From the IMG/VR virus record IMGVR_UViG_3300042868_009121, positions 32,001 to 96,000 of that record: DNA of 64,000 nt. One strand, 5' to 3'. The notes under the pieces were generated by a model. It was given only the letters and a program-made list of their open reading frames with translations, searched no databases and was not told the DNA's origin. Below are positions 1,074 through 31,573 of this stretch, piece by piece. Every line of letters begins with the position of its first letter. The stretch's first letter is position 1. The translations under genes and the position numbers were made by a program. Origin of the DNA: a virus.

Positions 1074-1104
1074 TTTATAAAATTTAAATAATTTTTTAGT
1101 ATGA

Positions 1105-3443: not shown

Positions 3444-3445
3444 AA

Positions 3446-4045: not shown

Positions 4046-4050
4046 AACAT

Positions 4051-4497: not shown

Positions 4498-4732
4498 TGA
4501 GTTGTTGTTTTGTTGTATATGTTATATTTGTTCCTGATGGTAATGAAGTGACGTCTGTTCTCCCAGATGCATTTAGAAAACCAGTCCCACCTACTCCTAT
4601 AGAAAAGCTTTTGTTATCAGATACTTTTTCTAGAACTTCTTTTATTCTATCCCATTGTTTAGGTGTAGGAGCAAAGTCATTACAAGCTTCTACAAATCCT
4701 TTTAACCATATTGTAAATTCACTTGATGTCAT
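4490..4732 (-). CDS. Hypothetical protein
   Basis: Coupled ORF with a common phage MTSSEFTIWLKGF-type N-terminus. Confidence 0.65.
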   Translation of the reverse strand: MTSSEFTIWLKGFVEACNDFAPTPKQWDRIKEVLEKVSDNKSFSIGVGGTGFLNASGRTDVTSLPSGTNITYTTKQQLND

Positions 4733-6036
4733 TAGTCTACTTTTTTAAGTTTAGGAAGTTCAATCTTCTTTAATTGAGGAAGTTGTAGTCCTACTTGTTT
4801 TGGTATTCTATCTAAATAGCTAGCAAGTAAGTTTTTCATTTCATCAAATGAGAATTTAGTTTTAGATATATGAGACTGTCGTTTAGCAAATTCTTCATAT
4901 TTAGAATATTTTTCATAAACATTTTTTAGGTAAGCACTTGCCTCATTAATATCTGGACTAAACCACATAGACTCTGCCAATATCATATTTTGTACTTGGG
5001 CAGATGGATGAACATTTTTTAATTCTCCGCCAATTAAACAACAGAATTCACGATCAAGAAAATCTATATGTCCAGACCAAGCAGATACTATAATTGGTTT
5101 TTTACTAAGTGTAAACTCTAATAAAGGTCTACCAAATCCTTCACCTTTAGTTAGATTAAACATTGCTTTAACTTTAGGATGGTTGTAAAGATTGTTAATA
5201 TCTTTATCATCTAATTCACCATGAAGTAAATATACACTAGGTAAATCTCCATCAACTGTATTTTTAATAGCATCTATCTTTTTAAGCATTTCATCACGGT
5301 CCATTATACTAGATCCTGCACCAGATGTTTTCATTATTAATGCAGGTTTATTTTTTTTACCTTTAAATGTTTCTAGAAATGTTTTTAGCATTAAGCTAGT
5401 ATTTTTTCTATCTTCACCAATTTCTCCTTGAAGCCAATGTCCTACATATAGAAAACAAAACTCTTCTTTGATTTCGTCTAATTCAAGCACTACGTCTGTT
5501 TCTTCAAGATCTTCATCTTCAATATGAAAGTATTTATTTAAATCTACTCCTTCAAATAAAACTTCAACTGGCTTTTCAAGTTTCACTACTCCAAGAACTT
5601 GATTTTGTTGATCTCTTTTTTCAAATGTAGATTGTTGAAATACTTTTTTAGAGTGTTCTGAAGATACTAAAGTTATGTTCATTCTATTAACTCCTTCAAT
5701 CCAACTAGGATCACAAATTGTTGTTTCAATACCTGCGGTTAAACCTATATTATACTTTCCTATAGATTGAAATTCGTTTGGTACAGTGATTTGAATCCAA
5801 ATATCTGGTTGTCTTGGTAATTGAGGAACTTGTAGAATTAAAGGTTCTAACCAACTATATTCTTGTTTATTGTCTTTAATATATCCCCAAGGAGTAACTC
5901 CCCAACGTTGAGATATGATTTTAATATCATACTCTTCTTTTTTTAATTCATATAGAGCTTTAACAAAGTCTCTAGATCTAGCACCATAACCTGAATACGT
6001 GTCAATAGGACAACTAATTACGCACAACTGTTTCAT
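4732..6036 (-). CDS. Glycosyltransferase, GT-B fold (GT4-like)
   Basis: SGYGARSRD N-terminus, KGEGFGRPLLE (E-x7-E) motif, WSGHIDFL. Confidence 0.85.
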   Translation of the reverse strand: MKQLCVISCPIDTYSGYGARSRDFVKALYELKKEEYDIKIISQRWGVTPWGYIKDNKQEYSWLEPLILQVPQLPRQPDIWIQITVPNEFQSIGKYNIGLTAGIETTICDPSWIEGVNRMNITLVSSEHSKKVFQQSTFEKRDQQNQVLGVVKLEKPVEVLFEGVDLNKYFHIEDEDLEETDVVLELDEIKEEFCFLYVGHWLQGEIGEDRKNTSLMLKTFLETFKGKKNKPALIMKTSGAGSSIMDRDEMLKKIDAIKNTVDGDLPSVYLLHGELDDKDINNLYNHPKVKAMFNLTKGEGFGRPLLEFTLSKKPIIVSAWSGHIDFLDREFCCLIGGELKNVHPSAQVQNMILAESMWFSPDINEASAYLKNVYEKYSKYEEFAKRQSHISKTKFSFDEMKNLLASYLDRIPKQVGLQLPQLKKIELPKLKKVD

Positions 6037-6037
6037 A

Positions 6038-7480
6038 TTAATAAACTAAAGGGTGTACAATTTTTTTTCTTTCTAATTTTTCTGTCTTAATTAAATCAAA
6101 CTGTTTTTTAGGTTTGAATGTATCAATAGTTTCATTTATAGTAGATATAACATTATCACACATATGAGCTGCGCTCATCATAGATTCATTAGATAATACC
6201 CACTCTCTAGCTGACATACCTTTTCTACTTCTTTCATCAGGAGATAAATTATAACAATCTTCAATTGCTTTAGCAACATCTCTAAAATCACATCTATCAT
6301 CATAAATGTAAGGAGTAGGTATAGATCCTACAATACTAATATTAGTAGGAAATACTGGTAACGCCCATTCTCCATGGTTTTTATATTTGCCAAAATGATT
6401 TGAACAGAATTTATCATTGAAGTCAATCCACTTACCATCTTCATCTTCAAATCTCATTTGATCTTGCATTCCTCCTGTAACATTAGCTATAATCATTCTA
6501 CCTGCCATCATAGATTCTGTTAAAGATAATCCCCAACCTTCATTAGATGAAATTAAAGCAGTCACATCAGACATGTTATAAAGCAAGTTTATTTCTTCTG
6601 CATTAAGTCTTGCATCTGAGAAATATACTTTTTGATATTCTGGATTACATATTAAATCTACTACTGCATTTAAGTCAGTTCCATTTTCATCTGCTCTTTG
6701 AGTATGCATTAATAGGGCACATTTGCTAGCCTTTTCTTTTCCTATCTTATCACAGAACATTGCATACGCGGCAATTAAATCAGAAGTACATTTTCTTCTA
6801 ATATTTCTGGCATTATAGAATACTACGAACTCAGGTTTAAAATCACCGAATATTTCTTTTTTCTTTTTTTCTAAAGCCTCATTCTGATTTTGCATAAATT
6901 CAGTAATAGGATAGAATATCTTTTCATTAATTCCATGAGGAACGTATTTAAGAATTTTTCCTTTTACTTTATCTCCTAATACCATTCTATTAATATTAAG
7001 AGTTTGCTTTGATATAGCCATTAAAGTATCACAAGAGTCATAAAATGATTCATTGTATAATGGAGCAGGAAGATCATCCCAAATATTTAAATACACCATA
7101 GGTATTTTTTTCCTAATCTCATTTTCCATTTGAAATAACCAAACCCAATATCTAGGATCTGTAAAAAAGAAAATAGCATCCGGCTTTTCTATTTCAATTA
7201 ATTGTCTAATTAATTCAGGACTTCCATACCCATTAGTAGGATAAATAAAAACAGAAGAATCATTTATGCCCATGATTCTATTTGTATCAGTAGATATGTC
7301 TAACTTTTTTCCTTGATCAGGATGATTAATTGCTCCACCTACATTTACCCAATTAAATACATGAGAACTTCCTACAACTATTTCTCTAGCCATTGTAGAG
7401 ATTCCGCTTGTCATTCTAATATCATCACATAGAAAAAGAATTTTTTTTCTTTGTGCTTGAGGAATATAACCATTTATCAT
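6038..7480 (-). CDS. Glycosyltransferase, GT-B fold (GT4-like)
   Basis: VPHGIN, NARNIRRK, SSNEGWGLSLTESM, NVTGGMQDQ. Confidence 0.87.
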   Translation of the reverse strand: MINGYIPQAQRKKILFLCDDIRMTSGISTMAREIVVGSSHVFNWVNVGGAINHPDQGKKLDISTDTNRIMGINDSSVFIYPTNGYGSPELIRQLIEIEKPDAIFFFTDPRYWVWLFQMENEIRKKIPMVYLNIWDDLPAPLYNESFYDSCDTLMAISKQTLNINRMVLGDKVKGKILKYVPHGINEKIFYPITEFMQNQNEALEKKKKEIFGDFKPEFVVFYNARNIRRKCTSDLIAAYAMFCDKIGKEKASKCALLMHTQRADENGTDLNAVVDLICNPEYQKVYFSDARLNAEEINLLYNMSDVTALISSNEGWGLSLTESMMAGRMIIANVTGGMQDQMRFEDEDGKWIDFNDKFCSNHFGKYKNHGEWALPVFPTNISIVGSIPTPYIYDDRCDFRDVAKAIEDCYNLSPDERSRKGMSAREWVLSNESMMSAAHMCDNVISTINETIDTFKPKKQFDLIKTEKLERKKIVHPLVY

Positions 7481-12226: not shown

Positions 12227-13417
12227 TTATTGTCCCTTACTAGGAAATTTAGTCCAACCATTGATCCAAGTAGGCATAGCTAATTCAGGAATAATAACAT
12301 CAATCTCTTTATTACCTTTTCCTAAAGCTAGTGTTTTAAGTTGATCATTAGTTAGGATTGTTGTTGCTTTACTAATAAAGTTTTGAGTTGGATTGAATGC
12401 ACCTACTGAATTATTTTCAAATATAGATACACCGTCTTTTATTGCTTGAGCTGTTTCATTACTTTCTAAACTTAATCCACCTTTTATCCAACCGTAGATA
12501 GCACTATTCTTTACTGTAAATTGTGTAGCTCTTCTAAACCTTAAACCTAGATTGTGGTTCGCTAATGCGGTTTGATTATTAGGTCCAACTAATACCATTC
12601 CAATTAATTTAGGATGCGTAAATGGTTGTGCCAGTGAGCCCACACCATCATTATCACATTCTACACCATTACCTGCGTCACCGTTGTCTACAAACAAAGG
12701 ATCACGTTTTGCAATACCATTTGTTACAGTTCCAGTGTAACCAAAATCAAAGTCAAAGTCATCATCTGCTGTAGCATACGCATAAAGATTTTTTGGAGAA
12801 ACAGTTCCGCCAAAGAATTCAAATGCATCATCGTTAGCATAGATTGTTTGTACATTTTCAATTATAGTACCAGAACCTACACCACCTAAAGTAAGTGCAT
12901 TAATTTCTGAGTTAGGTAATGCGGCAATTCCTGCATATTCAATACGAACATACTTCAAAATACCACTGTTGTCTCCATCATCATTACCACCAAATGGACG
13001 ACCAATACCACCTTCAATAGTTGGTTCTGATGAACGATTAGTTTTTGCTTTGCCTAATATTACAATTCCACCCCAGTCACCAGGAGACCTCTCGCCGGCG
13101 ATTTTTCCTGAGGTAAAAATGATTGGTTTTGTTGCTGTTCCTTCTGCAATAATCTTTGCACCTCTTTCGATACATAAAGCACCTTTTTCTGCAATATCAC
13201 TTTTAATTACAGTTCCTGCTTGAATAATTAATGTAGCACCTTCTTTAACATAAACGTATCCTCTTAGAGTCCATTCTTTGTCAGAAGTAAGAGTTGTAGT
13301 TATTGTAATGTTACCCGTAATTGTTTTGTCAGTAGGTACATTTATAGGTGGATCTATAGGTTCTTTTTTACAAGCAAATAAACCGATAATTACTAAAAAT
13401 AAAATTAGCTTTTTCAT
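12227..13417 (-). CDS. Surface lipoprotein, beta-helix-like, partner of the TonB-dependent receptor
   Basis: Lipobox LFAC; PGDWGGIVILGKA, DNSGILKYVRIEYAG, EINALTLGGVGSGT, DDAFEFFGGTV, DDDFDFDFG motifs. Confidence 0.8.
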   Translation of the reverse strand: MKKLILFLVIIGLFACKKEPIDPPINVPTDKTITGNITITTTLTSDKEWTLRGYVYVKEGATLIIQAGTVIKSDIAEKGALCIERGAKIIAEGTATKPIIFTSGKIAGERSPGDWGGIVILGKAKTNRSSEPTIEGGIGRPFGGNDDGDNSGILKYVRIEYAGIAALPNSEINALTLGGVGSGTIIENVQTIYANDDAFEFFGGTVSPKNLYAYATADDDFDFDFGYTGTVTNGIAKRDPLFVDNGDAGNGVECDNDGVGSLAQPFTHPKLIGMVLVGPNNQTALANHNLGLRFRRATQFTVKNSAIYGWIKGGLSLESNETAQAIKDGVSIFENNSVGAFNPTQNFISKATTILTNDQLKTLALGKGNKEIDVIIPELAMPTWINGWTKFPSKGQ

Positions 13418-15663
13418 AAATTCAAATTAAATGTTAATGAAATTGATTGTTCGTTATTTGTTTTAATTAAATTGCCTCTTGATTTTTGATAATAAACAGA
13501 TGGTTGGGCAAGTATATCACCTACTGCTAATTTTATTTCTCCTTTACCTACTTTACGTAAGAATACTAAATCTATAACATCTCTAGAGTTTTCAAATATA
13601 TCATCGTATCCTTGAAAACCTACCGCAGATATTCTATCTCCAACTCTGTTATAAGAAATGTTAAACGTATTTTTTCCTTTATGTAAATTCAATCCACCAT
13701 TTACAACATAATTAGATTGTCCTTGTAATTGTCTTTTTCTTCCATTAACAATAACTTCAGATTTAACTATAGAAGTATTAGTATAAGCATCTAACCAATT
13801 AGTTATTTTTTTACGAAATTCTATTTCAAATCCAGCAACTAATGCTTGATCTGGGTTCAAGTAAGTTAATAATAGGTTTGATGGTACAGATCCATCTGCT
13901 ACTATTTGTTCAATTGGCTTTTTAAAGTCTTTAATAAAGAAAGCGGCAGATATATTTTCACCTTGTTTAGGATAGTATTCTAATTTAATATCAATATTGT
14001 ATATATCTGTTTTTTCTAAATTAGTATTACCCAATAATTGAGCATTACGTACAAAATCATAATAAGCAAAATTAGCCACTTCTCTAAATTCAGGTCTTGC
14101 TAATGTTTTACTAGCAGATATTCTATATTTGAATTTATCCCATTCATAAGAAAAGTTTACCGACGGTAAAAAGTCTAAGTACTTCCTATTTACATCAACT
14201 TTTTGTCCACTAAAATCTGCAGTATTAACATTAAACAAATTATATTCTGTTCTTAAACCTGCATTTACTTTCCAACCATTTAACTCGCCTTCATATAAAG
14301 CATACGCACTCGCTAAATCAAAATCTGCTGAATACTTGTCTGTGTTGTTAGTAATTTCATCTAACATGTCTATAGAAGTATATCTAAAGATTCTAGCTTT
14401 GAAAGTTCTATATTTTTTAATATAGCTTGAACCCATTTTAAAATTACCTAGTTGTTTATTCACACTAGCATTTAAACCATTTTCATCCATATCACTCCAG
14501 AAACGATAAGTATCTCTCCATGCTGTTGCATAAGGTTCATTAACACCTAATGATTTAGTTATTGGATTAATTCTATAGTCTGGTTGTTTTCTTATCATTA
14601 AGTTATATCCTACATTAAAATCAAAAGTTTTAATCTTGCCATCAAATTGTGAATTGATCAATGTTTTAATTATATTGTTAGATGCTGTACTTCTTACATC
14701 TTGAACATTATCATAATTTTCACCATTACGAGTTAAATACGTTTGTTCAACTTGATGATTAAATAATGTTTTCCAACTATACTTATTCTTTCCTGTATAA
14801 GTAATATTAGTTAGTGCATTTAATAATTGCACCTTACTAAATGAAGTATCTTTATATTTGTAAGCTAATTCAGTTGAAGATTGATAATCTTGTCTATCAA
14901 TGTAGTTTAATTGGAATGTATTTCTTGTTGTTGAACTAAATAAAAAGTTCCACTTATTTCTTTTTAAACCAAAAGACATTGATCCATTTAAGTTAGGAAT
15001 GGATTTAAATTGTTTGGCGTCTGGAGACTTTATAAGGCTTGTATAATTCCTTTTCTCTGTGTTTGTGCTTACGCGGTAAGTGTATGTGGATGGAAATTGA
15101 GTGGGGACGGTCGTATAATCCACCAATTTGAAATTTTGGGAAGTTGATACGGCCCCGTAGTTCATTCCGAGGCCTAATGAGAAAAAATCATTGGACACAT
15201 CTTTTGTAGTTATTTGAACAATACCTCCTGCAAAATCACCGGGTAAATTAGCTGTAGCTGACTTTGCTACTATGATATTATCTATAAGTCCTGAGGGAAT
15301 AATATCAAATGAGAATGCTCTACGATCAGGTTCTGTTGAAGGTAAAATGGTTTTATTCAACATAGCAGAGTTATATCTGTCTGCTAAACCTCTAACCAAT
15401 ACAAATTTATCGTTCTGTATAGTAACACCATTAACTCTTTTGAGTGCGTCACCTACACTACGGTCAGGAGTCTTTTTTATAAATTCAATAGAAAGACCAT
15501 CAGATATAACAGAACTATTTCTGATACTATTAACAACGGCAATATTGGATTCTTTCTTTTGTACAGAACGAATTGTAATATTGTCTAGTTTTTGATTAAA
15601 AATTGTGTCTTGAGAAAATGACAGAACCGGGAATAGTAAAAATAATAACGTTTTTAATTTCAT
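13414..15663 (-). CDS. TonB-dependent outer-membrane receptor
   Basis: Signal peptide; plug motif ALKRVNGVT...VRGLADRYN...FDIIP...LPGDFAGG; barrel motifs LARPEFRE and GNTNLE; amphipathic C-terminal strand. Confidence 0.9.
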   Translation of the reverse strand: MKLKTLLFLLFPVLSFSQDTIFNQKLDNITIRSVQKKESNIAVVNSIRNSSVISDGLSIEFIKKTPDRSVGDALKRVNGVTIQNDKFVLVRGLADRYNSAMLNKTILPSTEPDRRAFSFDIIPSGLIDNIIVAKSATANLPGDFAGGIVQITTKDVSNDFFSLGLGMNYGAVSTSQNFKLVDYTTVPTQFPSTYTYRVSTNTEKRNYTSLIKSPDAKQFKSIPNLNGSMSFGLKRNKWNFLFSSTTRNTFQLNYIDRQDYQSSTELAYKYKDTSFSKVQLLNALTNITYTGKNKYSWKTLFNHQVEQTYLTRNGENYDNVQDVRSTASNNIIKTLINSQFDGKIKTFDFNVGYNLMIRKQPDYRINPITKSLGVNEPYATAWRDTYRFWSDMDENGLNASVNKQLGNFKMGSSYIKKYRTFKARIFRYTSIDMLDEITNNTDKYSADFDLASAYALYEGELNGWKVNAGLRTEYNLFNVNTADFSGQKVDVNRKYLDFLPSVNFSYEWDKFKYRISASKTLARPEFREVANFAYYDFVRNAQLLGNTNLEKTDIYNIDIKLEYYPKQGENISAAFFIKDFKKPIEQIVADGSVPSNLLLTYLNPDQALVAGFEIEFRKKITNWLDAYTNTSIVKSEVIVNGRKRQLQGQSNYVVNGGLNLHKGKNTFNISYNRVGDRISAVGFQGYDDIFENSRDVIDLVFLRKVGKGEIKLAVGDILAQPSVYYQKSRGNLIKTNNEQSISLTFNLNL

Positions 15664-20781: not shown

Positions 20782-21429
20782 ATGCCAGATTTACCAATAT
20801 CAGGATTACCAGCAGCAAATTTACCTTTAGATGGAACAGAATTATTTGCGACAGTTCAAGGAGGAATAACTAAATACTCAACATTAAATTCAGTAAACTA
20901 TATTCCTGGTAATAGCTATGGATTATATGCTCAAATAGTAAATAGCACTCCTGTAACTGCTACAACATCAGAATTATCTTTAATAAATAGTACTGATGGT
21001 ATAGGTACATTAACTGTTCCTGCTAATGGTTTTAGAGTCGGAGATAGTTTTAGAGCGGATTTTGGTGGTCAGTTTTCTTCTAAGAATAATGATACTATAA
21101 GAATTAGAGTTAAAACAGGAAATGTAATCTTAGCAGATAGTGGAGTACAAACTATGTCAGCAGCAGTTGATGACATTTGGCAACTCTCTATTAATTTTAC
21201 AATTAGAGAACTTGGAGCAGCAGGAGTAGCAGATATTGTTTCACTTGGTGTATTTCATACTACAAAACAATCTAACGGTGCTCCGCAAGGATTTGCTTTT
21301 AATACTATTAATAATACAACATTTAGTACTACAGTAACAAATGTTTTAGATGTTACAGCTCAGTTTAGTTCAAATAGTCCTTTAAATTCAATATTTACAG
21401 ACATATTCGTATTGAATAAAATCTATTAA
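20782..21429 (+). CDS. Putative virion/fibre-associated beta-rich protein
   Basis: MPDLPISGLPAA start; T/S/G/N-rich composition. Confidence 0.6.
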   Translation: MPDLPISGLPAANLPLDGTELFATVQGGITKYSTLNSVNYIPGNSYGLYAQIVNSTPVTATTSELSLINSTDGIGTLTVPANGFRVGDSFRADFGGQFSSKNNDTIRIRVKTGNVILADSGVQTMSAAVDDIWQLSINFTIRELGAAGVADIVSLGVFHTTKQSNGAPQGFAFNTINNTTFSTTVTNVLDVTAQFSSNSPLNSIFTDIFVLNKIY

Positions 21430-22502
21430 TTACTTAAGGGAGCTTTTATTTTTGAATGCGATTGATAATTTATTAACTCAAAACAATCTGGTCTGTAACT
21501 TAGTATTTTTTCGCTAAATGTTTTTTCTCCAAGATGTTCTTTAACTGCTTCATGCATATACCAATTCCTTTCAGTTATTTGAACTTTAGGTAATTCATAT
21601 GGAGTTCTAGTAATTTGTTCTTTAGCTTGTTCAATATGGTTATTATACAAATGAACGTCACCTAAATTACCAATTAAATCTTCAGGCACCATGTTTACTT
21701 CTTTAGCAATAATCTCAAGTAGTAGTGCATATGAAGCAATATTGAATGGTAGACCAAGGAATGTATCTACTGAACGTTGATTCCACATTAGAGAGATTGC
21801 TCTTCTTGGAATGTTTCGTTGTTCTAAACGATTTATAGCTACATTATGTAAACCATCTGGCGGCCAGTCGTATTTGGCAATGCTATACCTTTCTTTTAAA
21901 CTCAACTTTCTCGTATAAACTTGAAAACCATAATGACAAGGCGGAAGTACCATTTGATTTAATTCACCTACATTCCAAGCACTAACCATTAATCTTCTAC
22001 TATCTGGATTTATTTTGAGTTCTGAGATTAGGTTTGCGATTTGGTCTACGTGTTCAGTACCTTTATAGAATACGCTTCTACTATTCCAGTTTCTCCATTG
22101 CTTACCATAGATTGGTCCTAACTCCCCCCACTGTTTAGCAAACTCATCATCTGTTTTTATTTTTTCTACAAATGCTTCTTCCTTTGTAACAAACGGACCC
22201 CAATCAATTTCGCCGTTATATTTTTCATAGTTCTTAATTGCATCACCATTCCAAATATGACAACCATTATCAACAAGGTATTTGATATTAGTATCACCTC
22301 TTAGGAACCATAGTAACTCTGTTACCATAGTTTTCCACGCCATCTTTTTTGTAGTTAGCAATGGAAAGCCTTCTTTCATATTGTGCCTAATTTGCCAACC
22401 AAAGATTGATTTAGTGCCTGTACCTGTACGGTCTTTCTTATCTATACCAAAATGTAAGATATGTTCTAATATTTCTTTATACTGACGGTCTATATTATTC
22501 AT
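21426..22502 (-). CDS. thyA: Thymidylate synthase
   Basis: DRTGTGT, FPLLTTKK, ELLWFLRG, LGPIYGKQWR, LPPCH, QRSVDTFLGLPFNIASY. Confidence 0.96.
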   Translation of the reverse strand: MNNIDRQYKEILEHILHFGIDKKDRTGTGTKSIFGWQIRHNMKEGFPLLTTKKMAWKTMVTELLWFLRGDTNIKYLVDNGCHIWNGDAIKNYEKYNGEIDWGPFVTKEEAFVEKIKTDDEFAKQWGELGPIYGKQWRNWNSRSVFYKGTEHVDQIANLISELKINPDSRRLMVSAWNVGELNQMVLPPCHYGFQVYTRKLSLKERYSIAKYDWPPDGLHNVAINRLEQRNIPRRAISLMWNQRSVDTFLGLPFNIASYALLLEIIAKEVNMVPEDLIGNLGDVHLYNNHIEQAKEQITRTPYELPKVQITERNWYMHEAVKEHLGEKTFSEKILSYRPDCFELINYQSHSKIKAPLSN

Positions 22503-24138: not shown

Positions 24139-24786
24139 TTAGTTGAACATGTCGTAATGCCTAGGATAAACGTGTAGATTTGTAATAAACCAATGCATTT
24201 GACCTACTGGATAGCCTGTCTTTTCTGAAACTAATTCCATTAGTTTAGCAAATGTGTATTGGTCGTTACAGAAACCAAACACAAGATCAATGGATCTAGC
24301 AAAGACTGTAAGATGTAGTTTATCGTTTTTGATATAGAAATTAAGTACGTCATTACAAGGTGTATCATATTTGTATCTATCTATTTCGTGTAGAATATAA
24401 TGTACAACAATTGCTCGACGTGTTTCTTTATTTCTTTTTAGTTCGCTAATAACTTTGTTAAGTTGTTCATTATAATTCCAGAAGTATCCGTAATTAGAGT
24501 TTACCTCTGTAGTATATGGTATCATCATTTGGTTCCATATCTTAGCACGTTCTGCAATTTGTTTAGCATCTCTATCTCCTTTAACATACCATTCCCATTC
24601 ATATTCTGCATAATCTTGGTTAAACTTACGTCTAGGAGTTGTAATTACTTTATCTGCTGGATTATCGACTGTAAAAGAAACATTGAACTTAGCTTTAGTA
24701 TTAGCAAAGTCTTCACCTGTATCTATGATATAATGAAATAAGTTTTCAAATGCACTAGTAGGGGTCGAATAAATTTTATTGTCCAT
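24139..24786 (-). CDS. Thymidylate-synthase-fold dCMP hydroxymethylase-like enzyme (T4 gp42-like)
   Basis: NSNYG, TRRA, catalytic PC, and RSIDLVFGFCND with Asp at the position that is Asn in dUMP-specific ThyA. Confidence 0.8.
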   Translation of the reverse strand: MDNKIYSTPTSAFENLFHYIIDTGEDFANTKAKFNVSFTVDNPADKVITTPRRKFNQDYAEYEWEWYVKGDRDAKQIAERAKIWNQMMIPYTTEVNSNYGYFWNYNEQLNKVISELKRNKETRRAIVVHYILHEIDRYKYDTPCNDVLNFYIKNDKLHLTVFARSIDLVFGFCNDQYTFAKLMELVSEKTGYPVGQMHWFITNLHVYPRHYDMFN

Positions 24787-25243
24787 ATTGTTCTACTTGT
24801 ATAAATTGTGATAAAAAGTCTATGCCTTGAGTATTTCGATATACATTCAAATATACAACTTTTTTTATTCCTGATTGCAAAATAAGTTTAGAGCAGTCTA
24901 AACAAGGACTAAGTGTTAAGTACAAAGTGGAACCATCTACAGAGTTGCCTGTTTTTGCTGCTTTAAGAATGGCATTAACTTCTGCATGGATAACATGGGG
25001 CAGAGTGACATCATCTTTCTCACAAGTGTTGTCCATACCTGCAGGAGTGCCATTATATCCAAATGATATTATATTGCCATCTTTAACTAAAACTGCGCCG
25101 ACTTTTGATCGAACGCAGTGTGACAGAGTAGAAGTTTCCTTAGCTATGTTAATAAATACTCTGTTTAGTATTTTTTGCTTAAAGTCCTGTAGAACCGAAT
25201 CCACCTGAGCCTCTTTGTGTATTTCTGTTTGGTAATTCATCAA
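24776..25243 (-). CDS. dCMP deaminase (ComEB-like)
   Basis: KVGAVLV, GYNGTP, HAEVNAI, SPCLDC. Start uncertain because it overlaps dUTPase. Confidence 0.92.
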   Translation of the reverse strand: MMNYQTEIHKEAQVDSVLQDFKQKILNRVFINIAKETSTLSHCVRSKVGAVLVKDGNIISFGYNGTPAGMDNTCEKDDVTLPHVIHAEVNAILKAAKTGNSVDGSTLYLTLSPCLDCSKLILQSGIKKVVYLNVYRNTQGIDFLSQFIQVEQYGQ

Positions 25244-25607
25244 CTTCTAATATATCTAGGTAACCAACTGGAATTAAAACGAACTGAACTAATTTTTGTC
25301 CTGTAACAATAGTTTGATCTTTATCAGATGTATTAATCATGTGGAGATGAACTTCTCCTTCATAGTCTTCATCTACTACGCAAGCACCTACTGATAGTCC
25401 TTGCTTAACAGCTACACCTGATTTATTAAATGCTACTAGAGCATAGCCTCTAGGAACTTGTACTCTAACACCTGATGGGATCAATACTGATTCACCTGGC
25501 TTTAGTATTGTAGTTTCAAAATCCTCAGGTACATAAAAATCAATTCCTGCTGATGCTTCTGTGCCCCTATTTGGGGTCTTTACGTTTCGTAACTTTTGTA
25601 TCTTCAT
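25179..25607 (-). CDS. dut: Trimeric dUTPase
   Basis: AGIDF, KSG, VDEDYEGE, Q motif, RGSGGFGSTG. Likely start MKIQK at 25607. Confidence 0.93.
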   Translation of the reverse strand: MKIQKLRNVKTPNRGTEASAGIDFYVPEDFETTILKPGESVLIPSGVRVQVPRGYALVAFNKSGVAVKQGLSVGACVVDEDYEGEVHLHMINTSDKDQTIVTGQKLVQFVLIPVGYLDILEVDELPNRNTQRGSGGFGSTGL

Positions 25608-25872
25608 TTTGAACATTGTTTTGATAATCATTTAGTGAAGCAATATACGCAACACAATCTAATAAATTGTCTTCTTTATGGTTGTAAGCTTGTCTTGATA
25701 ACTTTAATGCAATCATTGCGTTATACATATCAACTGCAGTTAGTTCTTTACGACTTAATAACGATGCAATTTTAGCTGCTTCTTGCATACCTTCTTGCAT
25801 TGGCCCATATTGACGGGCTTTCTCTTCAGATCTCTTGTAGATAATCTCGTTTGCTTGTTCTAGTATATTCAT
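25567..25872 (-). CDS. DUF6378-like all-alpha protein (possible dNTP pyrophosphohydrolase)
   Basis: ILEQANEII...RQYG...MIALKLSR...HKEDNLLD..AY. Confidence 0.6.
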   Translation of the reverse strand: MNILEQANEIIYKRSEEKARQYGPMQEGMQEAAKIASLLSRKELTAVDMYNAMIALKLSRQAYNHKEDNLLDCVAYIASLNDYQNNVQNEDTKVTKRKDPK

Positions 25873-25908
25873 GGAATAAATATAAAACAGAATTAATAAA
25901 TGGTAAAA

Positions 25909-26796
25909 CTATTCTCCTAAGTACTTAATAATATCAGACTTATCACCCCACTCTCTTTGAGAGTCTACATCACTTGGTTTAATTGTAGGCTTAGGCATAT
26001 TTCTAGCAACATTCCAGAACCAATTTCCAGAGTGACCATAACGTTTCATATAATCCCAACCTTTTGCATCATAGGTTTTGATACAATCAAATGGAGTATC
26101 GATGTCACAATCTTTAAGGAACTCTTTATGATACGCATAAAATTTAGCTCTACCTAATTCACCTGGTTGCACATTTCTTGCAACTGCTACTGCATTAAAT
26201 TTAGTATCTGGAAGTGCAATCTGAAGCGTTCTAGATAATACGCCTGTTGAGAATACACTCCACAATTCATCTATATTTTTATCTTTAAATGCTTCATGAA
26301 ATATCTTAACTCCGCCTGCTACAACTTGTTCATGTTTAAGACCGAATGGTAAATATTTTGCACCGATCTTTTTTGCAAAATCTTTTGCCCAACCATTAAT
26401 AGTAGGCATAGCAGGAGTTTTCAAGAATATAGGAGTCGCTCCATCTTCAATAACACGTAGTTGATGCTCAGATGCTTCTTTAGATGCTGGCATAAATAGT
26501 ATCAACTTTTTATTATACTTTTTAGCAAGATATGTTAATGAGTATGGAGCGTACCCTGTTCTAGGTGCAACATAAACTAAAGCATCTTCTTTTACTTGAC
26601 TAATCATAAAGTCTCCCATCTTTGCCTTACTACCATATTGAAACTCACCATCATCGATTATATTAAAACCTTCTGCTTGTTTTAATTTAAATTCAAAATC
26701 TGGTTTGTAGTTTTTCGTCATTTCAAGATAGTAGTTTAAATCTCTACCATCTGACATGTCTAAGTTAGATTGATCTGTTGCTTTGTTTATGAACAT
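25909..26796 (-). CDS. PLP-dependent enzyme (fold type II-like) in the DNA-modification cluster
   Basis: GSKAK PLP-lysine region, LVYVAPRTGYA, LPFGL.H, FSTGVL, YDAK.W. Confidence 0.7.
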   Translation of the reverse strand: MFINKATDQSNLDMSDGRDLNYYLEMTKNYKPDFEFKLKQAEGFNIIDDGEFQYGSKAKMGDFMISQVKEDALVYVAPRTGYAPYSLTYLAKKYNKKLILFMPASKEASEHQLRVIEDGATPIFLKTPAMPTINGWAKDFAKKIGAKYLPFGLKHEQVVAGGVKIFHEAFKDKNIDELWSVFSTGVLSRTLQIALPDTKFNAVAVARNVQPGELGRAKFYAYHKEFLKDCDIDTPFDCIKTYDAKGWDYMKRYGHSGNWFWNVARNMPKPTIKPSDVDSQREWGDKSDIIKYLGE

Positions 26797-26798
26797 TT

Positions 26799-27485
26799 TT
26801 ATTTCTTTTCTTGAAGTTCTTTACTTAAATTACTAACCGGAACTGGTGTTCCTACAGGATATGGGAATCCTTCTTTAGCTGCAGTAATAGACGTCATTCC
26901 TGTTTTAACCGGAATAGCTTTACGTAGTGGAACTGCTGCTTCATTAAGTGGACCGTATACTTTTGCCAATACAATACCTGTAGATGTTGTATCAAAGATA
27001 ATTCCTGGCATAGCAAACATATTACTTTCACTTGTACTTGGATTATCAAGGTTTATAACAAATGCACGATTTACTGGAGGTAGTAATTCCCACTCTTTAG
27101 TTTCAGGATTAAACTGAGGTACTACCGTTGTTGAATCAAAATACCAGAATAGAGACCATGCTGTACCATTAGTTCCATCAGGAGTTTGAAAGTTTTCAGC
27201 TACATTGAATTTTCCATAAGTTCCACTAATGCCTTCCATTGCTAAATTAGAAATAGATGGTCCGTCTAATACAGGGCATATTGCACATCCTTCATCATAT
27301 TCAACTCCTTGAACGATAATCTTTTTTCCAGTAGGAATTGCTCCAGATGCACCGCAAAAAGCAAAAGATCCTTCGTGTACCTTTACTATTTTATCAAATT
27401 TAAGATCTTCAACTATCTCAGTGTTTGTCTTACAACTAACTAACATTACTAGTAGACTAACTACCATGAGTGCGCTTTTTTTCAT
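26799..27485 (-). CDS. Hypothetical lipoprotein
   Basis: Lipobox LVSC; several cysteines. Confidence 0.7.
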   Translation of the reverse strand: MKKSALMVVSLLVMLVSCKTNTEIVEDLKFDKIVKVHEGSFAFCGASGAIPTGKKIIVQGVEYDEGCAICPVLDGPSISNLAMEGISGTYGKFNVAENFQTPDGTNGTAWSLFWYFDSTTVVPQFNPETKEWELLPPVNRAFVINLDNPSTSESNMFAMPGIIFDTTSTGIVLAKVYGPLNEAAVPLRKAIPVKTGMTSITAAKEGFPYPVGTPVPVSNLSKELQEKK

Positions 27486-27496
27486 TTTTTTGTTTT

Positions 27497-28540
27497 TTAT
27501 TTTAATTTAATTGCGAAGTCATAATACTTGTCATGACCCCATGTTTGTTTAAGAATTGAATTATTTTTCATTCTATGACCATTATTTTTTATAATATGAT
27601 CTTCAGACTGATATTCTTGGAAATAACGAACCACGTCGCATGCTCTACTATCTTCACAATCAATTGGATTCAAGTTATACCTATTAGACAAGAATTGTAG
27701 TACTTCATTAATATACTCGAACTCTTTTACTTTAGGACTAACTTTAGGAAAAATAGCTTTAATACAACGAACTGCGTTTGTTCCTGCATATACCCAACCT
27801 TTAGGATTTACCATATTAGGAAAATATTCACCTAAGTCAGCAGCAAATGCAGTCAATACAAAGTTTTGTTTTTTAAATCCAACACTATTAAGATATTCAT
27901 TACCAATATCTGTTACTTGATAGATATCTAATCTTTTAGTAGTAACAGCTTCATAAATATGTCTAACTAAACCTTCTGAGTGTTCAAGAATAAAACGTCT
28001 TAAGTGTCCTCTAGTCTCGCCTTCAAAAGTGAATTGTGGAAGTAAGTATCCTTTATTATCTGTAAAAGGCGTGATGCGGTTTCTAAGGTCTTCTTTCCAT
28101 TCTGGCCATGTATATCTTTCTTTTAATATAGAATCTACAATCCAGAAATTACCGAAACCATGCGTACCCAGGATGTCCTTGATATGATCTGTTTTATATC
28201 TAGGTACGTAATTAATACCAGAACCACTTAGTCTAAATAAATAGAATAGCATAAACCAATCAAACTCATCTTTTATATCATGATGTGTAAAGTGATTACC
28301 CATTCCTCTTAAGTCTTTTTCTTTATACCATACGGCTTCAGTAAAAGCGCAGAATGCTGCAAATCTACGATGCGCAGTATCATAAATAGGCACATGATAA
28401 ATTAAATCGTCATTAACATCTGCAAGTAAGTCTCCATCATAAGGAAGCTTAAGACTACCATGTTGTTGCATTAATAAACTACGTTTATCGTATTCATCTA
28501 ATGCTTCAAGGAGTTTTTCGTTTATAATAAATTTAGTCAT
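27497..28540 (-). CDS. Putative amino-acid:DNA transferase / aGPT-Pplase-like DNA hypermodification enzyme
   Basis: LFRL, F..AFAADL, YAGTNA..CI and IDCEDSRACDVVRY line up by eye with aGPT-Pplase motifs; neighbours a PLP enzyme and a hydroxymethylase. Confidence 0.55.
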   Translation of the reverse strand: MTKFIINEKLLEALDEYDKRSLLMQQHGSLKLPYDGDLLADVNDDLIYHVPIYDTAHRRFAAFCAFTEAVWYKEKDLRGMGNHFTHHDIKDEFDWFMLFYLFRLSGSGINYVPRYKTDHIKDILGTHGFGNFWIVDSILKERYTWPEWKEDLRNRITPFTDNKGYLLPQFTFEGETRGHLRRFILEHSEGLVRHIYEAVTTKRLDIYQVTDIGNEYLNSVGFKKQNFVLTAFAADLGEYFPNMVNPKGWVYAGTNAVRCIKAIFPKVSPKVKEFEYINEVLQFLSNRYNLNPIDCEDSRACDVVRYFQEYQSEDHIIKNNGHRMKNNSILKQTWGHDKYYDFAIKLK

Positions 28541-28566
28541 ATATAAATGTATAAAAATTATGTTTA

Positions 28567-29247
28567 TTAATCAAATCTATCTTTGCAGTGATCAAAATGC
28601 CATCGCTGCATAGCATTGTATTGACCTATTTTTTTACAATATGGACACTCCACTTTTTTCCTATCTTTAGCTGATTCTGACATTTTAATTTTAGCTTCTT
28701 CTGATTTAGGTTTGCGCATCTTACTTATAGTATTTTTAGAGTGTTTTTTACCAAATCTCCAGTTTTTTTCTCCTATTCTAGAATTTGATATATTCAATCT
28801 ATGAGATTCAGAAAAAATCTTACCAGTATTAGGTCCTGGTTTGCCTATTTTAGCTTTTGACAGTTTCTTTTTATGATCTTCAGATAAAATTTTGCCTTTA
28901 TGAGAGATAGATATTTTTAATTTAGTTTCATAACTTACAACTTTTTCTCTCATTTTATTTTTACAATACTCATATACTCTAGAACTTGGTTTATATCTAT
29001 TTCCTTTCTCTGTAGGTATTATAGACATCATAGAAAAAGCATAAAATAGACTAGGATTATCAGGATATATTTCATGTAGTAACCAATGACATAAAAAATG
29101 TTCTCTTGCAGTAAGCTCTACTATATTATCTTTATCATTACAACCTCCAATACATTTAGGTATTATATGATGCTTTTCTTTATATCCTTCTACAATTCTA
29201 TTTTTAGCTCTGTATATAATTTGATCATATATTTTTTTATAATTCAT
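28567..29247 (-). CDS. Free-standing HNH homing endonuclease with NUMOD3 repeats
   Basis: EKHHIIPKCIGG...N.V.LTAREHFLCH.LL, repeated (H)SEE.K.K.S motifs, C-terminal CPYC...HFDHC. Confidence 0.9.
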   Translation of the reverse strand: MNYKKIYDQIIYRAKNRIVEGYKEKHHIIPKCIGGCNDKDNIVELTAREHFLCHWLLHEIYPDNPSLFYAFSMMSIIPTEKGNRYKPSSRVYEYCKNKMREKVVSYETKLKISISHKGKILSEDHKKKLSKAKIGKPGPNTGKIFSESHRLNISNSRIGEKNWRFGKKHSKNTISKMRKPKSEEAKIKMSESAKDRKKVECPYCKKIGQYNAMQRWHFDHCKDRFD

Positions 29248-29358
29248 AAAAAAGAAAATGGTCCAAAAAACAGAGGAGCTACTACCTTCCTAAGTTTAAA
29301 GGACCAATAAGTTTATTATAGAATGTTGGTAGTAGCAACTTTCTGTCTATAATAAATA

Positions 29359-29589
29359 TCATAGTTTTTCTATTTCTTGTTTTACTTCTTCTAAATAATC
29401 CCAAACCTTTTTATCATAAAAACCTGCAAGTACTAATAGTTCGCCTATTGCTATTAATGCACATTGTTTAGCTTGTTTCCATGCTTTATATTCTTCAGAT
29501 ATACCTAAAGGCTCATTTATCCAAGCCTCATTAGGTGTTGTTTGGTAAAACTTATCTACTAATTCTTCTGCTTTTTCTTTTGGTGTCAT
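29359..29589 (-). CDS. Hypothetical protein, MTPKEKA family copy 1
   Basis: MTPKEKAEELV...EEVKQEIEKL; paralog of 30393-30647. Confidence 0.75.
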   Translation of the reverse strand: MTPKEKAEELVDKFYQTTPNEAWINEPLGISEEYKAWKQAKQCALIAIGELLVLAGFYDKKVWDYLEEVKQEIEKL

Positions 29590-29882
29590 TTATTATAAGT
29601 TTCATTGTAGTATTTAAAAAATGTTTGCCAATCTTCTTCAGCAATACCTTTTCCTTCAAATCTACCAGCTTGGTGAGCAGCTATCCAGCAATCTTCCATC
29701 TGCTCCATCTCCATTAATTTGGCTTGTTCAAATATCTTTTGCCACTCGAGAATATGTGGTTCACTTTTCAATAAAGTTTCAAAAAACCATTCTACTGCTG
29801 TTTGTTGTTTTGTTATTTGTGTAAATGTACCATACACAGGATAGCCATTTTCGTCTAGTGGATTGTCTGTTTGTCGTGCCAT
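29586..29882 (-). CDS. Hypothetical protein, KQQTAV family copy 1
   Basis: KQQTAVEW...EQAKLME...YYNETY. Confidence 0.7.
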   Translation of the reverse strand: MARQTDNPLDENGYPVYGTFTQITKQQTAVEWFFETLLKSEPHILEWQKIFEQAKLMEMEQMEDCWIAAHQAGRFEGKGIAEEDWQTFFKYYNETYNK

Positions 29883-30121
29883 ATTTTATCTTTAAATGTT
29901 TTATTATAATAATCTTCAAACGAATCACCATGACCTGTGTCTAACAATGCTAACATAGCGTGTTCATAACATGCTTTCATTTGCTCCCTCCCCATTGCTT
30001 TGGCTTTTTCAAATAAATACTCAAACAAAAACTGATTAGCCTCATACGCATTACCTATTTCTTTAGGAAACTTATTTTGTAATTCTATTAAAATCCAATT
30101 AACTGCTGTTTGTTGTTTCAT
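29855..30121 (-). CDS. Hypothetical protein, KQQTAV family copy 2
   Basis: MKQQTAVNW...EKAKAM...YYNKTF. Confidence 0.7.
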   Translation of the reverse strand: MKQQTAVNWILIELQNKFPKEIGNAYEANQFLFEYLFEKAKAMGREQMKACYEHAMLALLDTGHGDSFEDYYNKTFKDKIWHDKQTIH

Positions 30122-30429
30122 ATATCATATGATTTAGGTGAAGGTAAGCCACTATAATGACAATCCAAACCATTAATCAACATCTCTGCAATATTCTTAT
30201 GTTTACGATCTATTTGATCATTTAGATTATCTATTCTAGTACTTAAATTATCCATGCTATTACTTAAATTATCTACTCTAGCATTTAAATAACCATGTAG
30301 AAATCCGTTAATCCAAAATCCTTTATCATTCTTATCACAACCATGACATCCTTCCCACTGGGTTTCAGCTAGTTGTTCTATTTCTTTTCGTGTCATAGTT
30401 TTTCTATTTCTTGTTTTACCTCTTCCCAA
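30118..30429 (-). CDS. Hypothetical protein
   Basis: Ends CHYSGLPSPKSY; real start is probably MTRKE at about 30396. Confidence 0.6.
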   Translation of the reverse strand: MGRGKTRNRKTMTRKEIEQLAETQWEGCHGCDKNDKGFWINGFLHGYLNARVDNLSNSMDNLSTRIDNLNDQIDRKHKNIAEMLINGLDCHYSGLPSPKSYDI

Positions 30430-30647
30430 TAAGATTTAGCCATTCTCCAATCACCACTATCAGACATTATCCCCATAGATAGTATTTCATCTACTGCAAC
30501 TAATGCATATATCTTAGCATGAATAACGGAATTAATTATTTGAATTGGAACTACTGTCTGTTCACCACTACTGTCTTCTATACGCTCAGTATGATATACA
30601 GTAAGAAACTTACTTACGAGTTGCTCTGCTTTTTCTTTTGGTGTCAT
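30393..30647 (-). CDS. Hypothetical protein, MTPKEKA family copy 2
   Basis: MTPKEKAEQLV...ALVAVDEIL...YWEEVKQEIEKL. Confidence 0.75.
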   Translation of the reverse strand: MTPKEKAEQLVSKFLTVYHTERIEDSSGEQTVVPIQIINSVIHAKIYALVAVDEILSMGIMSDSGDWRMAKSYWEEVKQEIEKL

Positions 30648-31573
30648 TTTACAAATTCGTTTGCGAACATATAATATTTAGGCTTCAAGTGTACTGATTG
30701 TTTAGGTTCCATGTATTCAAACATCTTCATTCCATCTTCATCAATCCATTCATTTGGCCATTGAAGTGTTTTAAGTCCTGAATTATTCATGATCCTATTT
30801 GCTGTATCTACCAATCTTGCTCTTTCTTGTCTTGTGCCAAAATAAGCTTGTTTTAGATATAAACCTGTACCAGGTAATTTACGACTTTCATGCTCAACTG
30901 GTAACAAATTAACTAGAGTTGCATTATTTAGTTTCTTAGCAAATTCTACATAACGTCTAATAAGATCTCCTACTGCTTCAGCAGGATTATCTTGCCTCAT
31001 TAAGTGAAAACGAATATCAATATTACCAAAGTAAAGAACTACTTCGTCATATTTTTGATTCCACTCTTCAATTAAAGAGTCGGCATCTTTTAAGAATCCA
31101 AACAAAGTTTTACCGTCTGTTCTATCAAGACCAAAACCAGGTCTCCATGCACTAAGCGAATGAGAATCACCTCTTACTAACTTCTTTGTATTATTTGCAT
31201 GTAGTCTAGCAAAGTCAATACAGTTGATTGCAGTAAACTGATGATCAATATTAAATCTTTTATTGAACACATTAAGATCAATAGGAACATTAACTGCAAT
31301 AGCTAAACCTTTATAATTAGCCATAGCTTCAAGCTTAGCTCTATGTTCAGGTTGTGGTCCTCCAATAAAATTGAATACGTTCTCTTGATAGTTAACTCCT
31401 TCTAGAATGTAGAGTCTTTCATATTCATTCCATGTTGAAGGATCTGGATTAACATCTAAATCTCCTGGGTGTTCTGATTTTAGTATGTTCAACATAACAT
31501 GATAATAGCCGCCGCCGTGATGGCTTTGGCTACTACCAACATTATTGAGCATACCTACTACGGCTGCTTTCAT
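30644..31573 (-). CDS. Protein with SGNH-hydrolase-like C-terminal domain, near the DNA-modification genes
   Basis: GDSH (block I), FGNID (block III) and SVH (block V) motifs. Confidence 0.55.
   Translation of the reverse strand: MKAAVVGMLNNVGSSQSHHGGGYYHVMLNILKSEHPGDLDVNPDPSTWNEYERLYILEGVNYQENVFNFIGGPQPEHRAKLEAMANYKGLAIAVNVPIDLNVFNKRFNIDHQFTAINCIDFARLHANNTKKLVRGDSHSLSAWRPGFGLDRTDGKTLFGFLKDADSLIEEWNQKYDEVVLYFGNIDIRFHLMRQDNPAEAVGDLIRRYVEFAKKLNNATLVNLLPVEHESRKLPGTGLYLKQAYFGTRQERARLVDTANRIMNNSGLKTLQWPNEWIDEDGMKMFEYMEPKQSVHLKPKYYMFANEFVK

Follow-up and report, generated by a model that had tools for sequence, protein, structure and literature searches.

Can a phage build an amino-acid-derived base on cytosine, and can it do so without a P-loop DNA kinase? 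This question is raised by a group of genes at positions 24139-31573 of a 64-kb stretch of DNA (the window, by which we mean the whole stretch analysed; positions 32,001-96,000 of IMG/VR record IMGVR_UViG_3300042868_009121) from an uncultured lake-water phage. An original prediction, made from the letters of this stretch, had read these genes as a novel cytosine hypermodification pathway; our analysis supports that reading, and none of the computational tests aimed at refuting it did so. The genes that it named are all present, throughout on the minus strand, with the coordinates given in this text. On balance, judging from sequence and from modelled structures, we lean towards a conserved phage module for hypermodifying cytosine, in which 5-hydroxymethylcytosine (5hmC) would be turned into an amino-acid-derived base with the help of an SGNH-like partner in the kinase's stead, followed by trimming by a pyridoxal phosphate (PLP) enzyme. 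The phage and hundreds of its relatives carry a conserved gene set that probably elaborates 5hmC in DNA to a more complex base derived from an amino acid. The five genes of the module are the following (E, E-value; pLDDT, predicted local distance difference test).

24139-24786, minus strand: thymidylate synthase (TS) homolog, predicted dCMP hydroxymethylase (5-hydroxymethyl-dCMP, or 5hm-dCMP, synthase), 215 aa; Pfam Thymidylat_synt PF00303, E 4.7e-27
25567-25872, minus strand: DUF6378 protein, 101 aa; Pfam DUF6378, E 2.3e-12; module member
25909-26796, minus strand: fold-type-II PLP enzyme (family P0002), 295 aa; phrog_7093, E 3.6e-27
27497-28540, minus strand: helix-hairpin-helix (HhH) glycosylase-fold protein of a new family (P0004), here called transferase-like, 347 aa; AlphaFold 2 model, mean pLDDT 93.3
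30644-31573, minus strand: two-domain protein (P0005), here called SGNH-like, 309 aa, with an N-terminal alpha/beta and a C-terminal SGNH/GDSL-fold domain; AlphaFold 2 model, pLDDT 90.6

The conserved module and its thymidylate synthase homolog

Linkage of these genes was followed in 80 IMG/VR loci that were fetched through the 27497-28540 protein. Homologs of the transferase-like protein are present at all 80 of them, those of the PLP enzyme at 79, of the DUF6378 protein at 75, of the SGNH-like protein at 74 and of the TS homolog at 65, and the genes keep the order SGNH-like, transferase-like, PLP, TS homolog in loci as divergent as 50% identity; neighbouring genes for replication and for chaperones are found in closer relatives only. 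Because the module genes co-occur in a fixed order across the 80 loci, their clustering is not due to chance, and the conserved module consists of the TS homolog and the PLP, transferase-like and SGNH-like genes, with DUF6378 as a fixed fifth member.

The TS homolog carries RSIDLVFGFCND (FGFCND), and its top solved relative is the T4 dCMP hydroxymethylase gp42 (1b49, E 6.5e-18). Its Asp is aligned on Asp179 of gp42 (RSNDVVFGFRND, FGFRND) and the Cys of its YDTPC motif on the catalytic Cys of gp42, a residue that is invariant among 62 homologs, namely the complete TS homologs that adjoin the module in related contigs. TS homologs with a dCMP-type Asp have been described to yield either 5hm-dCMP or 5-hydroxy-dCMP (PMC13326640, 2026). 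According to the diagnostic rules derived for them, in E. coli numbering, N177D denotes dCMP as the substrate, an acidic residue at L143 a product other than the methyl compound, and D169N a 5-hydroxy-dCMP synthase; the acidic residue at the L143 position admits water, which leads to a hydroxymethyl instead of a methyl group (PMC13326640). At the equivalents of L143, C146, R166, D169 and N177 the window protein and 62 out of 62 module-linked homologs have D, C, R, D and D. Because of these residues at the five diagnostic positions, the protein is predicted under the published rules to be a 5hm-dCMP synthase with dCMP as its substrate. Two other activities were considered and ruled out, that of a 5-hydroxy-dCMP synthase by the retention of D169 and that of a dCMP methylase by the acidic residue at the L143 position. 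At the N177 position the ThyA of the window itself has Asn, and the earlier claim that a normal ThyA is accompanied by a second TS-fold enzyme with a dCMP-specifying Asp agrees with the Pfam matches, with the alignment on gp42 Asp179 and with all 62 homologs. That this second enzyme would be of the dCMP rather than the dUMP type, as had also been proposed, is what its diagnostic residues indicate, and they point to a hydroxymethylase.

The DUF6378 protein shows a set of invariant residues (R14, E17, K18, R20, Y22-G23-P24, K57-L58-S59-R60, D68-N69 and D72), and a profile search of the PDB found no relative. From this pattern of invariant acidic and basic residues one might guess that it is a small nucleotide pyrophosphatase such as a dCTPase.

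Among cultured phages, the nearest TS homologs (43.7% identity) belong to Bacteroides fragilis phages, for example BF503P2 (OP172671.1; L001), each of which carries two genes annotated as dCMP hydroxymethyltransferase, and a dUTPase. Homologs of the transferase-like protein and of the PLP enzyme are not detectable in these Bacteroides phages.

Candidate enzymes acting on DNA

The PLP enzyme is the member of the module that connects most directly to proteins of proven function. The core of phrog_7093 is gp52 of phage M6 (2.2e-159), whose record annotates it as 'threonine dehydratase', and an hhalign comparison of a 28-sequence P0002 profile with M6 gp52 gave a probability of 86.7% and an E of 4.4e-6 over 188 columns, in which both share a distinctive C-terminal motif, PF..YD.K.W ... 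FWN. Experiments have shown that M6 gp52 decarboxylates C-alpha-glycinyl-thymine in DNA in a PLP-dependent manner, the product being 5-aminoethyl-uracil (PMC8989533). For P0002 itself a direct Pfam match, PALP included, was not found at E up to 10; it aligns with the PALP part of Erythrobacter phage R6L gp1, which scores 40.6 bits against a Pfam PALP cut-off of 35. Its profile matches in the PDB, of which 13 of the 15 listed are cysteine synthases, are weak (E 0.05) and place the invariant K57 on the PLP lysine of these enzymes, and its neighbours in the ESM Atlas are viral PLP clusters resembling the tryptophan synthase beta chain (score 0.97). Judged from the phrog assignment and the hhalign result, the protein is a true homolog of M6 gp52, which bears out the PLP enzyme of the original prediction, and it is predicted to act as a decarboxylase or tailoring enzyme on an amino-acid:base conjugate in DNA.

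N6/N4 DNA-methylase-like domains are also found fused to relatives of the PLP enzyme. Gp1 of phage vB_EliS_R6L (L098:5810-8230) combines Pfam N6_N4_Mtase with PALP, and another relative (P0276) shows an SGPPYF motif upstream of its PLP part; such methylase-PLP fusions may represent a different, undescribed DNA modification enzyme.

The transferase-like protein was placed by its fold, using a model built from a 32-sequence alignment. In a Foldseek search of BFVD this model matched proteins named 'amino acid:DNA transferase domain' (E 2.3e-12 and 1.6e-3), the helical domains of the 5-hydroxymethyl-deoxyuridine (5-hmdU) DNA kinases of PhiW-14 and SP10, and Pplase1 proteins, with probabilities of 0.99-1.0 for all named matches. 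The best re-aligned PDB chain was PaMx11 gp46 (8z2n; VIA Z 9.7, root-mean-square deviation 4.1, 208 residues aligned), a 5-phosphomethyl-dU glycinyltransferase whose structure has been solved (8z2m/8z2n; PMC11472151). In a wide VIA search that was independent of Foldseek, the first 22 chains all belonged to the HhH-GPD superfamily, in the order DUF2419 (Z 9.2), gp46 (Z 8.6), AGOG, NTHL1, OGG, Mag1, AlkA, EndoIII and MutY, after which Z dropped to 4.6 or less. An invariant D297-S298-x-x-C301 has the same spacing as the active-site E243-T244-x-x-C247 of gp46, of which C247 clamps the base, and is located in the structural alignment at the corresponding end. This is suggestive only, and an equivalent of the W-x-x-x-K of gp46 (W146, K150) was not identified.

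Searches by sequence gave little for this family. There was no Pfam match at E up to 10, nothing useful in sequence and profile searches of the PDB, and a match to HMUDK_hel in one of 32 relatives (E 0.031); a search of two relative genomes (G001 and G002) with HMUDK_hel PF18723 likewise returned nothing. We found 363 homologs in metagenomes, almost all of them from uncultured phages, no tblastn match in 50,697 phage records, with no close homolog detectable in cultured phages, and no relative in a scan of 185,579 species genomes; as far as the latter scan reaches, the family is restricted to phages. The aGPT-Pplase group, to which the original prediction had likened the protein, was reportedly defined by Iyer et al. 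in 2013. Of this likeness the fold holds, since the model shows a two-bundle, all-helical HhH-glycosylase-like fold, as gp46 does, and is amino-acid:DNA-transferase-like, but membership by Pfam does not. On the evidence of the model, P0004 is a separate, new family within the HhH / amino-acid:DNA transferase / aGPT-Pplase / HMUDK_hel superfamily, and the window protein is predicted to be a base-flipping transferase subunit that acts on 5hmC in DNA.

For the SGNH-like protein, whose model was built from a 30-sequence alignment, the fold of residues ~120-306 agrees with the name it had been given: all top 50 rows of the wide VIA search are SGNH esterases or O-acetyltransferases (Z 11.8 to 7.7), several with a Foldseek probability of 1.0, and the acetyltransferases PatB and OatA are among the fold matches. 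The N-terminal 120 residues form a small alpha/beta domain with an invariant His19 and Asn68, for which an ESM Atlas search found no usable match. Pfam searches with the whole protein (E up to 10) returned nothing, Lipase_GDSL included, and PDB sequence and profile searches nothing useful. When 1.84 billion cluster representatives were searched in full with HMMER, 465 relatives were found, 292 of them below 1e-30 and almost all from uncultured phages. In the best 150 representatives G135-D136-S137-H138, T156, I185-D186, R188, H190, R231, R251, E289 and H295 are invariant or nearly so; of the catalytic blocks, GDSH is found in 149 of 149, the block-III N184 in 133 of 149 and the block-V H295 in 147 of 147. 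An ATP-binding motif was not found in the catalytic domain.

The association of this protein with the transferase-like family extends to gene fusions. Eight separate 50%-identity clusters among the best 150 representatives are proteins of 560-790 aa in which an N-terminal SGNH-like part is followed by a C-terminal P0004-family part (hmmsearch E of the P0004-family profile 8.6e-149 to 2.7e-29), and one such fusion is also present at locus L079. In a metagenomic protein of 981 aa (P0195), an FkbM methyltransferase is joined to a HMUDK_hel domain that is significant in Pfam (43 bits, E 4.5e-11) and to an SGNH-like domain at the C-terminus, a triple fusion that suggests further variants of the pathway. 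Among cultured phages, ORF233c of Aeromonas phage 44RR2.8t (795 aa) has an SGNH-like part at residues ~1-334, and 38 Aeromonas and 2 Stenotrophomonas phage records contain homologs of this ORF. The C-terminal region of ORF233c is colinear with the HMUDK_hel-bearing part of P0195 (phmmer E 1e-13) and has a weak Pfam HMUDK_hel match (E 0.0036). It is linked to HMUDK_hel via P0195 only: hhalign of the P0004 family against the Aeromonas fusion protein gave nothing, and a widened hidden Markov model likewise missed the ORF233c C-terminus. Phage 44RR2.8t also encodes a gp42-like protein with the same 5hm-dCMP-synthase residues, together with a normal td. In known 5-hmdU DNA kinases the P-loop domain precedes the HMUDK_hel domain. 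By its position in fusions of the 44RR2.8t type, the SGNH-like domain occupies the place of this P-loop kinase domain, and the 30644-31573 protein is predicted to be the catalytic partner of the 27497-28540 protein, at the position that the kinase has in known systems.

A P-loop kinase was looked for by a Walker-A scan of all window open reading frames (ORFs) of at least 60 aa, in which only the DnaB-like helicase and the RecA/UvsX-like protein appeared, as expected from the claim that no such kinase is visible in the window. In 20 distant loci, scanned with flanks of at most 10 kb, there was no Walker-A kinase by the module either, save for one small P-loop ORF at L046.

Proposed pathway and competing explanations

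From these assignments a pathway in three steps can be proposed. Before replication, the TS homolog would convert dCMP to 5hm-dCMP as T4 gp42 does, a step suggested by the diagnostic residues, and after phosphorylation of the nucleotide the phage polymerase would incorporate 5hmC into DNA. After replication, a two-part enzyme would act on 5hmC in DNA, as folds, synteny and fusions suggest. Its HhH-fold part (27497-28540) would bind the DNA and flip the base like PaMx11 gp46, and its SGNH-like part (30644-31573) would provide the activating chemistry for which the thymidine pathways use the P-loop 5-hmdU DNA kinase. The likeliest chemistry would be O-acylation of the hydroxymethyl group via Ser137 and His295, the reaction that SGNH O-acetyltransferases perform on sugars; this would create a leaving group, after which an amino acid or amine would be attached at the C5 methylene. 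In the third step, in keeping with the homology to M6 gp52, the PLP enzyme would decarboxylate or otherwise trim the attached amino acid. One may also speculate, from the known chemistry of enzymes acting at C5 of pyrimidines, that no activating group is needed and that water leaves directly upon covalent catalysis at C6 by the invariant Cys301. The likely benefit is that the phage DNA is shielded from host nucleases, which would amount to an anti-restriction role.

A bolder form of this proposal, which we put forward tentatively as a possibility, is that the SGNH-like protein represents a new kind of enzyme for modifying DNA bases, which takes over from the P-loop DNA kinase and, paired or fused with its HhH base-flipping partner, activates 5hmC by an O-acylation or group transfer new to DNA. 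It might then give rise to the first amino-acid-derived hypermodified cytosine, and the same pair might modify the DNA of the T4-like Aeromonas phages 44RR2.8t, 31 and 25, which have long been in culture and whose DNA chemistry would in that case have been overlooked.

Several observations weigh against the proposed pathway. P0004 fails every aGPT-Pplase and HMUDK_hel Pfam model, and hhalign of the family against M6 gp51 showed no profile similarity; its link to the transferases is one of fold, with Z values of 8.6-9.7 that are level with that of the queuine-salvage DUF2419 and not high for a protein made up of helices only. In the P0005 family the block-V Asp is absent, the residue three before the His being Q, R, K or G, and the many invariant Arg and His residues would also suit other chemistry or plain DNA binding; we know of no SGNH enzyme that has been shown to act on DNA bases. 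Moreover, a homolog of the PLP gene was not found in 44RR2.8t. Because the T4-like Aeromonas phages have the fusion protein and no PLP enzyme, the product may differ between lineages. Finally, when the search for a kinase was extended beyond the window to a 162-kb relative rated 95% complete (G001), its Walker-A ORFs comprised PhoH, a helicase, a recombinase, a homing endonuclease and one kinase-like protein of the Zeta_toxin family. The latter (29275-30060, minus strand; L090:9275-10060; 261 aa) matches Pfam Zeta_toxin above the cut-off (E 5.2e-10), lies ~96 kb from the module and could be a DNA kinase. The absence of a kinase extends to the surroundings of the module in the relatives, where none is linked to it, but not to the whole of the relative G001, in which this unlinked Zeta_toxin-family kinase is present.

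This protein is the starting point of the alternative that survives best, which we nevertheless consider unlikely. It holds that the pathway is a standard one, in which an unlinked P-loop kinase of the Zeta-toxin type phosphorylates 5hmC in DNA and the 27497-28540 protein substitutes the amino acid, so that the SGNH-like protein would serve only in late tailoring, as an O/N-acetyltransferase or esterase comparable to the acetyltransferase gp48 of PaMx11. Tailoring by acetyltransferases does exist in known pathways (PMC8989533), and PatB and OatA are acetyltransferases. However, the Zeta_toxin-type protein is distant from the module, homologs of it are found neither in the window nor at any of the 80 module loci, and it could equally be the deoxynucleoside monophosphate (dNMP) kinase that every 5hm-dCMP pathway requires. 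A role in late tailoring also fits poorly with the repeated fusion of SGNH-like domains to a transferase-like or HMUDK_hel-like domain at the position of the kinase, which is not known for the tailoring enzymes of the described clusters.

Clearly less probable is a thymine derivative, for which the dCMP deaminase encoded next to the TS homolog would turn 5hm-dCMP into 5hm-dUMP, and the resulting 5-hydroxymethyluracil (5hmU) in DNA would be modified as in M6, ViI and PaMx11. All characterised amino-acid:DNA transferases and PLP enzymes indeed use 5hmU-derived bases (PMC8989533). The deaminase, though, is missing in 34 of the 80 loci, whereas the dCMP-type Asp is retained in 62 of 62 TS homologs; a normal ThyA is kept, a 5-hmdU DNA kinase was found neither by the window scan nor with PF18723 in G001 and G002, and T4, with the same set of deaminase, ThyA and gp42, makes 5hmC.

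The least probable explanation is that the phage contains plain 5hmC only, like T4 without its sugars, and that the PLP, HhH and SGNH-like proteins serve amino-acid or lipid metabolism, DNA repair or a DUF2419-like nucleoside salvage: these three proteins pass no Pfam model and the HhH protein matches the queuine-salvage enzymes as well as it does gp46 (Z 9.2 vs 8.6-9.7), but their genes are tightly linked to a dCMP-type TS homolog over deep divergence, the PLP protein is homologous to a proven decarboxylase of a DNA conjugate and has PLP-domain relatives fused to DNA methylase domains, and fusions of SGNH-like and HMUDK_hel domains exist.

Genomic setting, known pathways and implications

Further features in and around the module are the following.

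21426-22502, minus strand: canonical ThyA, 358 aa; Pfam Thymidylat_synt, E 1.2e-93; motif RSVDTFLGLPFN (LGLPFN)
24776-25243, minus strand: dCMP deaminase; Pfam dCMP_cyt_deam_1, E 3.1e-26; phrog_174; 46 of 80 loci
25179-25631, minus strand: trimeric-type dUTPase; Pfam dUTPase, E 6.8e-25; 46 of 80 loci
26799-27485, minus strand: inserted lipoprotein-type gene between the transferase-like and PLP genes; signal peptide ending at Cys18; 18 of 80 loci
28567-29247, minus strand: HNH/NUMOD3 homing endonuclease, a mobile insertion; Pfam NUMOD3, E 4.4e-14; phrog_655, E 3e-55; 7 of 80 loci
29359-30647, minus strand: five small ORFs of 76-103 aa that arrived with the HNH insertion; 1-5 of 80 loci each

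With a canonical ThyA present, thymine is still made, and ThyA, dCMP deaminase and dUTPase belong to the usual nucleotide metabolism of the T4 style and are not specific to the pathway. The dCMP deaminase, dUTPase and DUF6378 proteins all exceed their Pfam cut-offs. The ThyA protein is longer than the 266-position Pfam model that covers its residues 7-357, leaving ~90 extra residues as at least one insertion, and the dCMP deaminase ORF as listed has a TTG start and shares 65 bases with the end of the dUTPase gene.

The span 24139-31573 had been taken as one cluster, which is true of the linked module genes and not of the DNA between them. Compared with L041 (~96% identical), the window carries two insertions, 26805-27497 and 28535-30645, both of which are also absent from the likewise ~96% identical L002, and in L041 and L002 the SGNH-like and transferase-like genes abut. 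The lipoprotein, the HNH endonuclease and the small ORFs were ruled out as members of the pathway on the grounds that these insertions are absent from L041 and L002. Different relatives hold different parts of the 2.1-kb HNH block. No family, Pfam included, was found for the lipoprotein, whose PDB matches are designed Kelch repeats without meaning.

The window is AT-rich (~31% GC), has almost all of its genes on the minus strand and comes from a large, uncultured myovirus whose replication genes are of mixed type. It encodes a tail sheath, a T4-type baseplate, a gp32-like protein, a DnaB-like helicase, a RecA/UvsX-like protein, a family-A polymerase, a class II ribonucleotide reductase, GroEL and Hsp20. 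A megablast search of the region against the 50,697 phage records gave zero matches; relatives in IMG/VR are plentiful and include the above-mentioned 162-kb contig, with a DNA identity of 70-83% across most of the window. At one end of the window (117-7480, minus strand) lies a sugar-nucleotide cluster with two genes of the GDP-mannose 4,6-dehydratase family (117-1133 and 1105-2085), a DegT/EryC1 aminotransferase (2082-3443), a GT2 gene (3446-4045) and a GT1 glycosyltransferase (6038-7480). This cluster is retained in the same 162-kb relative and could serve the remodelling of host surface glycans or, alternatively, the glycosylation of phage DNA. An unusual cargo for a phage is a gene for an outer-membrane protein that resembles TonB-dependent receptors (13414-15663, minus strand; Plug and OMP_b-brl_3 domains). 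Because of this cargo, and because the best matches of the TS homolog are Bacteroides phages, there are hints of a host among the Bacteroidota.

In the described hypermodifications of thymidine (M6, ViI, PaMx11, PhiW-14) a dUMP hydroxymethylase, a 5-hmdU DNA kinase, an amino-acid:DNA transferase and a PLP decarboxylase act together (PMC8989533; structures in PMC11472151; a diamine transferase in PMC13458397). The module resembles these pathways in that a TS homolog would make a 5-hydroxymethyl pyrimidine that enzymes acting in DNA take up after replication, in its M6 gp52 homolog and in an HhH fold similar to that of gp46. It differs from them in a TS homolog of the dCMP type, which makes cytosine the target, in an SGNH-like protein at the place of a P-loop DNA kinase, in fusions as well, in a transferase-like protein of a new family without a Pfam aGPT-Pplase or HMUDK_hel match, and in the lack of radical S-adenosylmethionine, flavin adenine dinucleotide and acetyltransferase (GNAT) genes. 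With T4 gp42 the TS homolog shares the catalytic Cys, the Asp at the N177 and L143 positions and D169, and with T4 the phage shares the companions dCMP deaminase, ThyA and dUTPase; the identity is ~30%, however, no T4-type glucosyltransferase adjoins, and transferase and PLP enzymes instead of sugar transferases are found downstream. The 5-hydroxy-dCMP synthases of RB69, DLP3 and RL38JI likewise have a dCMP-type Asp and an acidic L143 position (PMC13326640), but Asn at the D169 position, where the window protein and 62 of 62 homologs have Asp, so that 5hmC and not 5-hydroxycytosine is predicted.

As regards the two-part enzyme, the fusions have the architecture of the 5-hmdU DNA kinase (P-loop domain plus HMUDK_hel PF18723), namely a catalytic domain ahead of a helical, HhH-like domain that belongs to the same superfamily, with the difference that their catalytic part is SGNH-like and shows GDSH and an invariant His in place of a Walker-A motif. 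From PatB, OatA, sialate O-acetylesterase and other SGNH/GDSL enzymes, with which it shares the fold of residues ~120-306, the block-I Ser, the block-III Asn and the block-V His, the protein is set apart by its extra N-terminal domain, the lack of a block-V Asp, a larger number of invariant Arg and His residues and its association with DNA-base enzymes.

Our literature search turned up no account of a pathway in which an amino-acid:DNA transferase works on cytosine, of a 5hmC DNA kinase, of phospho- or aminomethyl-cytosine, or of an SGNH enzyme in DNA modification. To our knowledge, every amino-acid or amine hypermodification that has been characterised in phage DNA is made on thymine and begins with a P-loop 5-hmdU DNA kinase, and the cytosine hypermodifications we know of are sugars or a carbamoyl group. 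What the module predicts is a third class, in which an amino-acid-derived cytosine would arise with no P-loop 5-hmdU DNA kinase involved, and there is a real chance that its activation chemistry is categorically new. With 363 homologs of the transferase-like protein and 465 cluster representatives of the SGNH-like protein, the module is not rare, and since cultured Aeromonas phages encode the fusion protein, the question can already be addressed by routine phage and E. coli experiments. If the proposed pathway is true, it would mean a new DNA base and a new route for activating a hydroxymethyl pyrimidine in DNA, would supply new enzymes for the labelling of 5hmC, of practical interest for epigenome mapping, and would explain how these phages resist restriction and possibly CRISPR nucleases.

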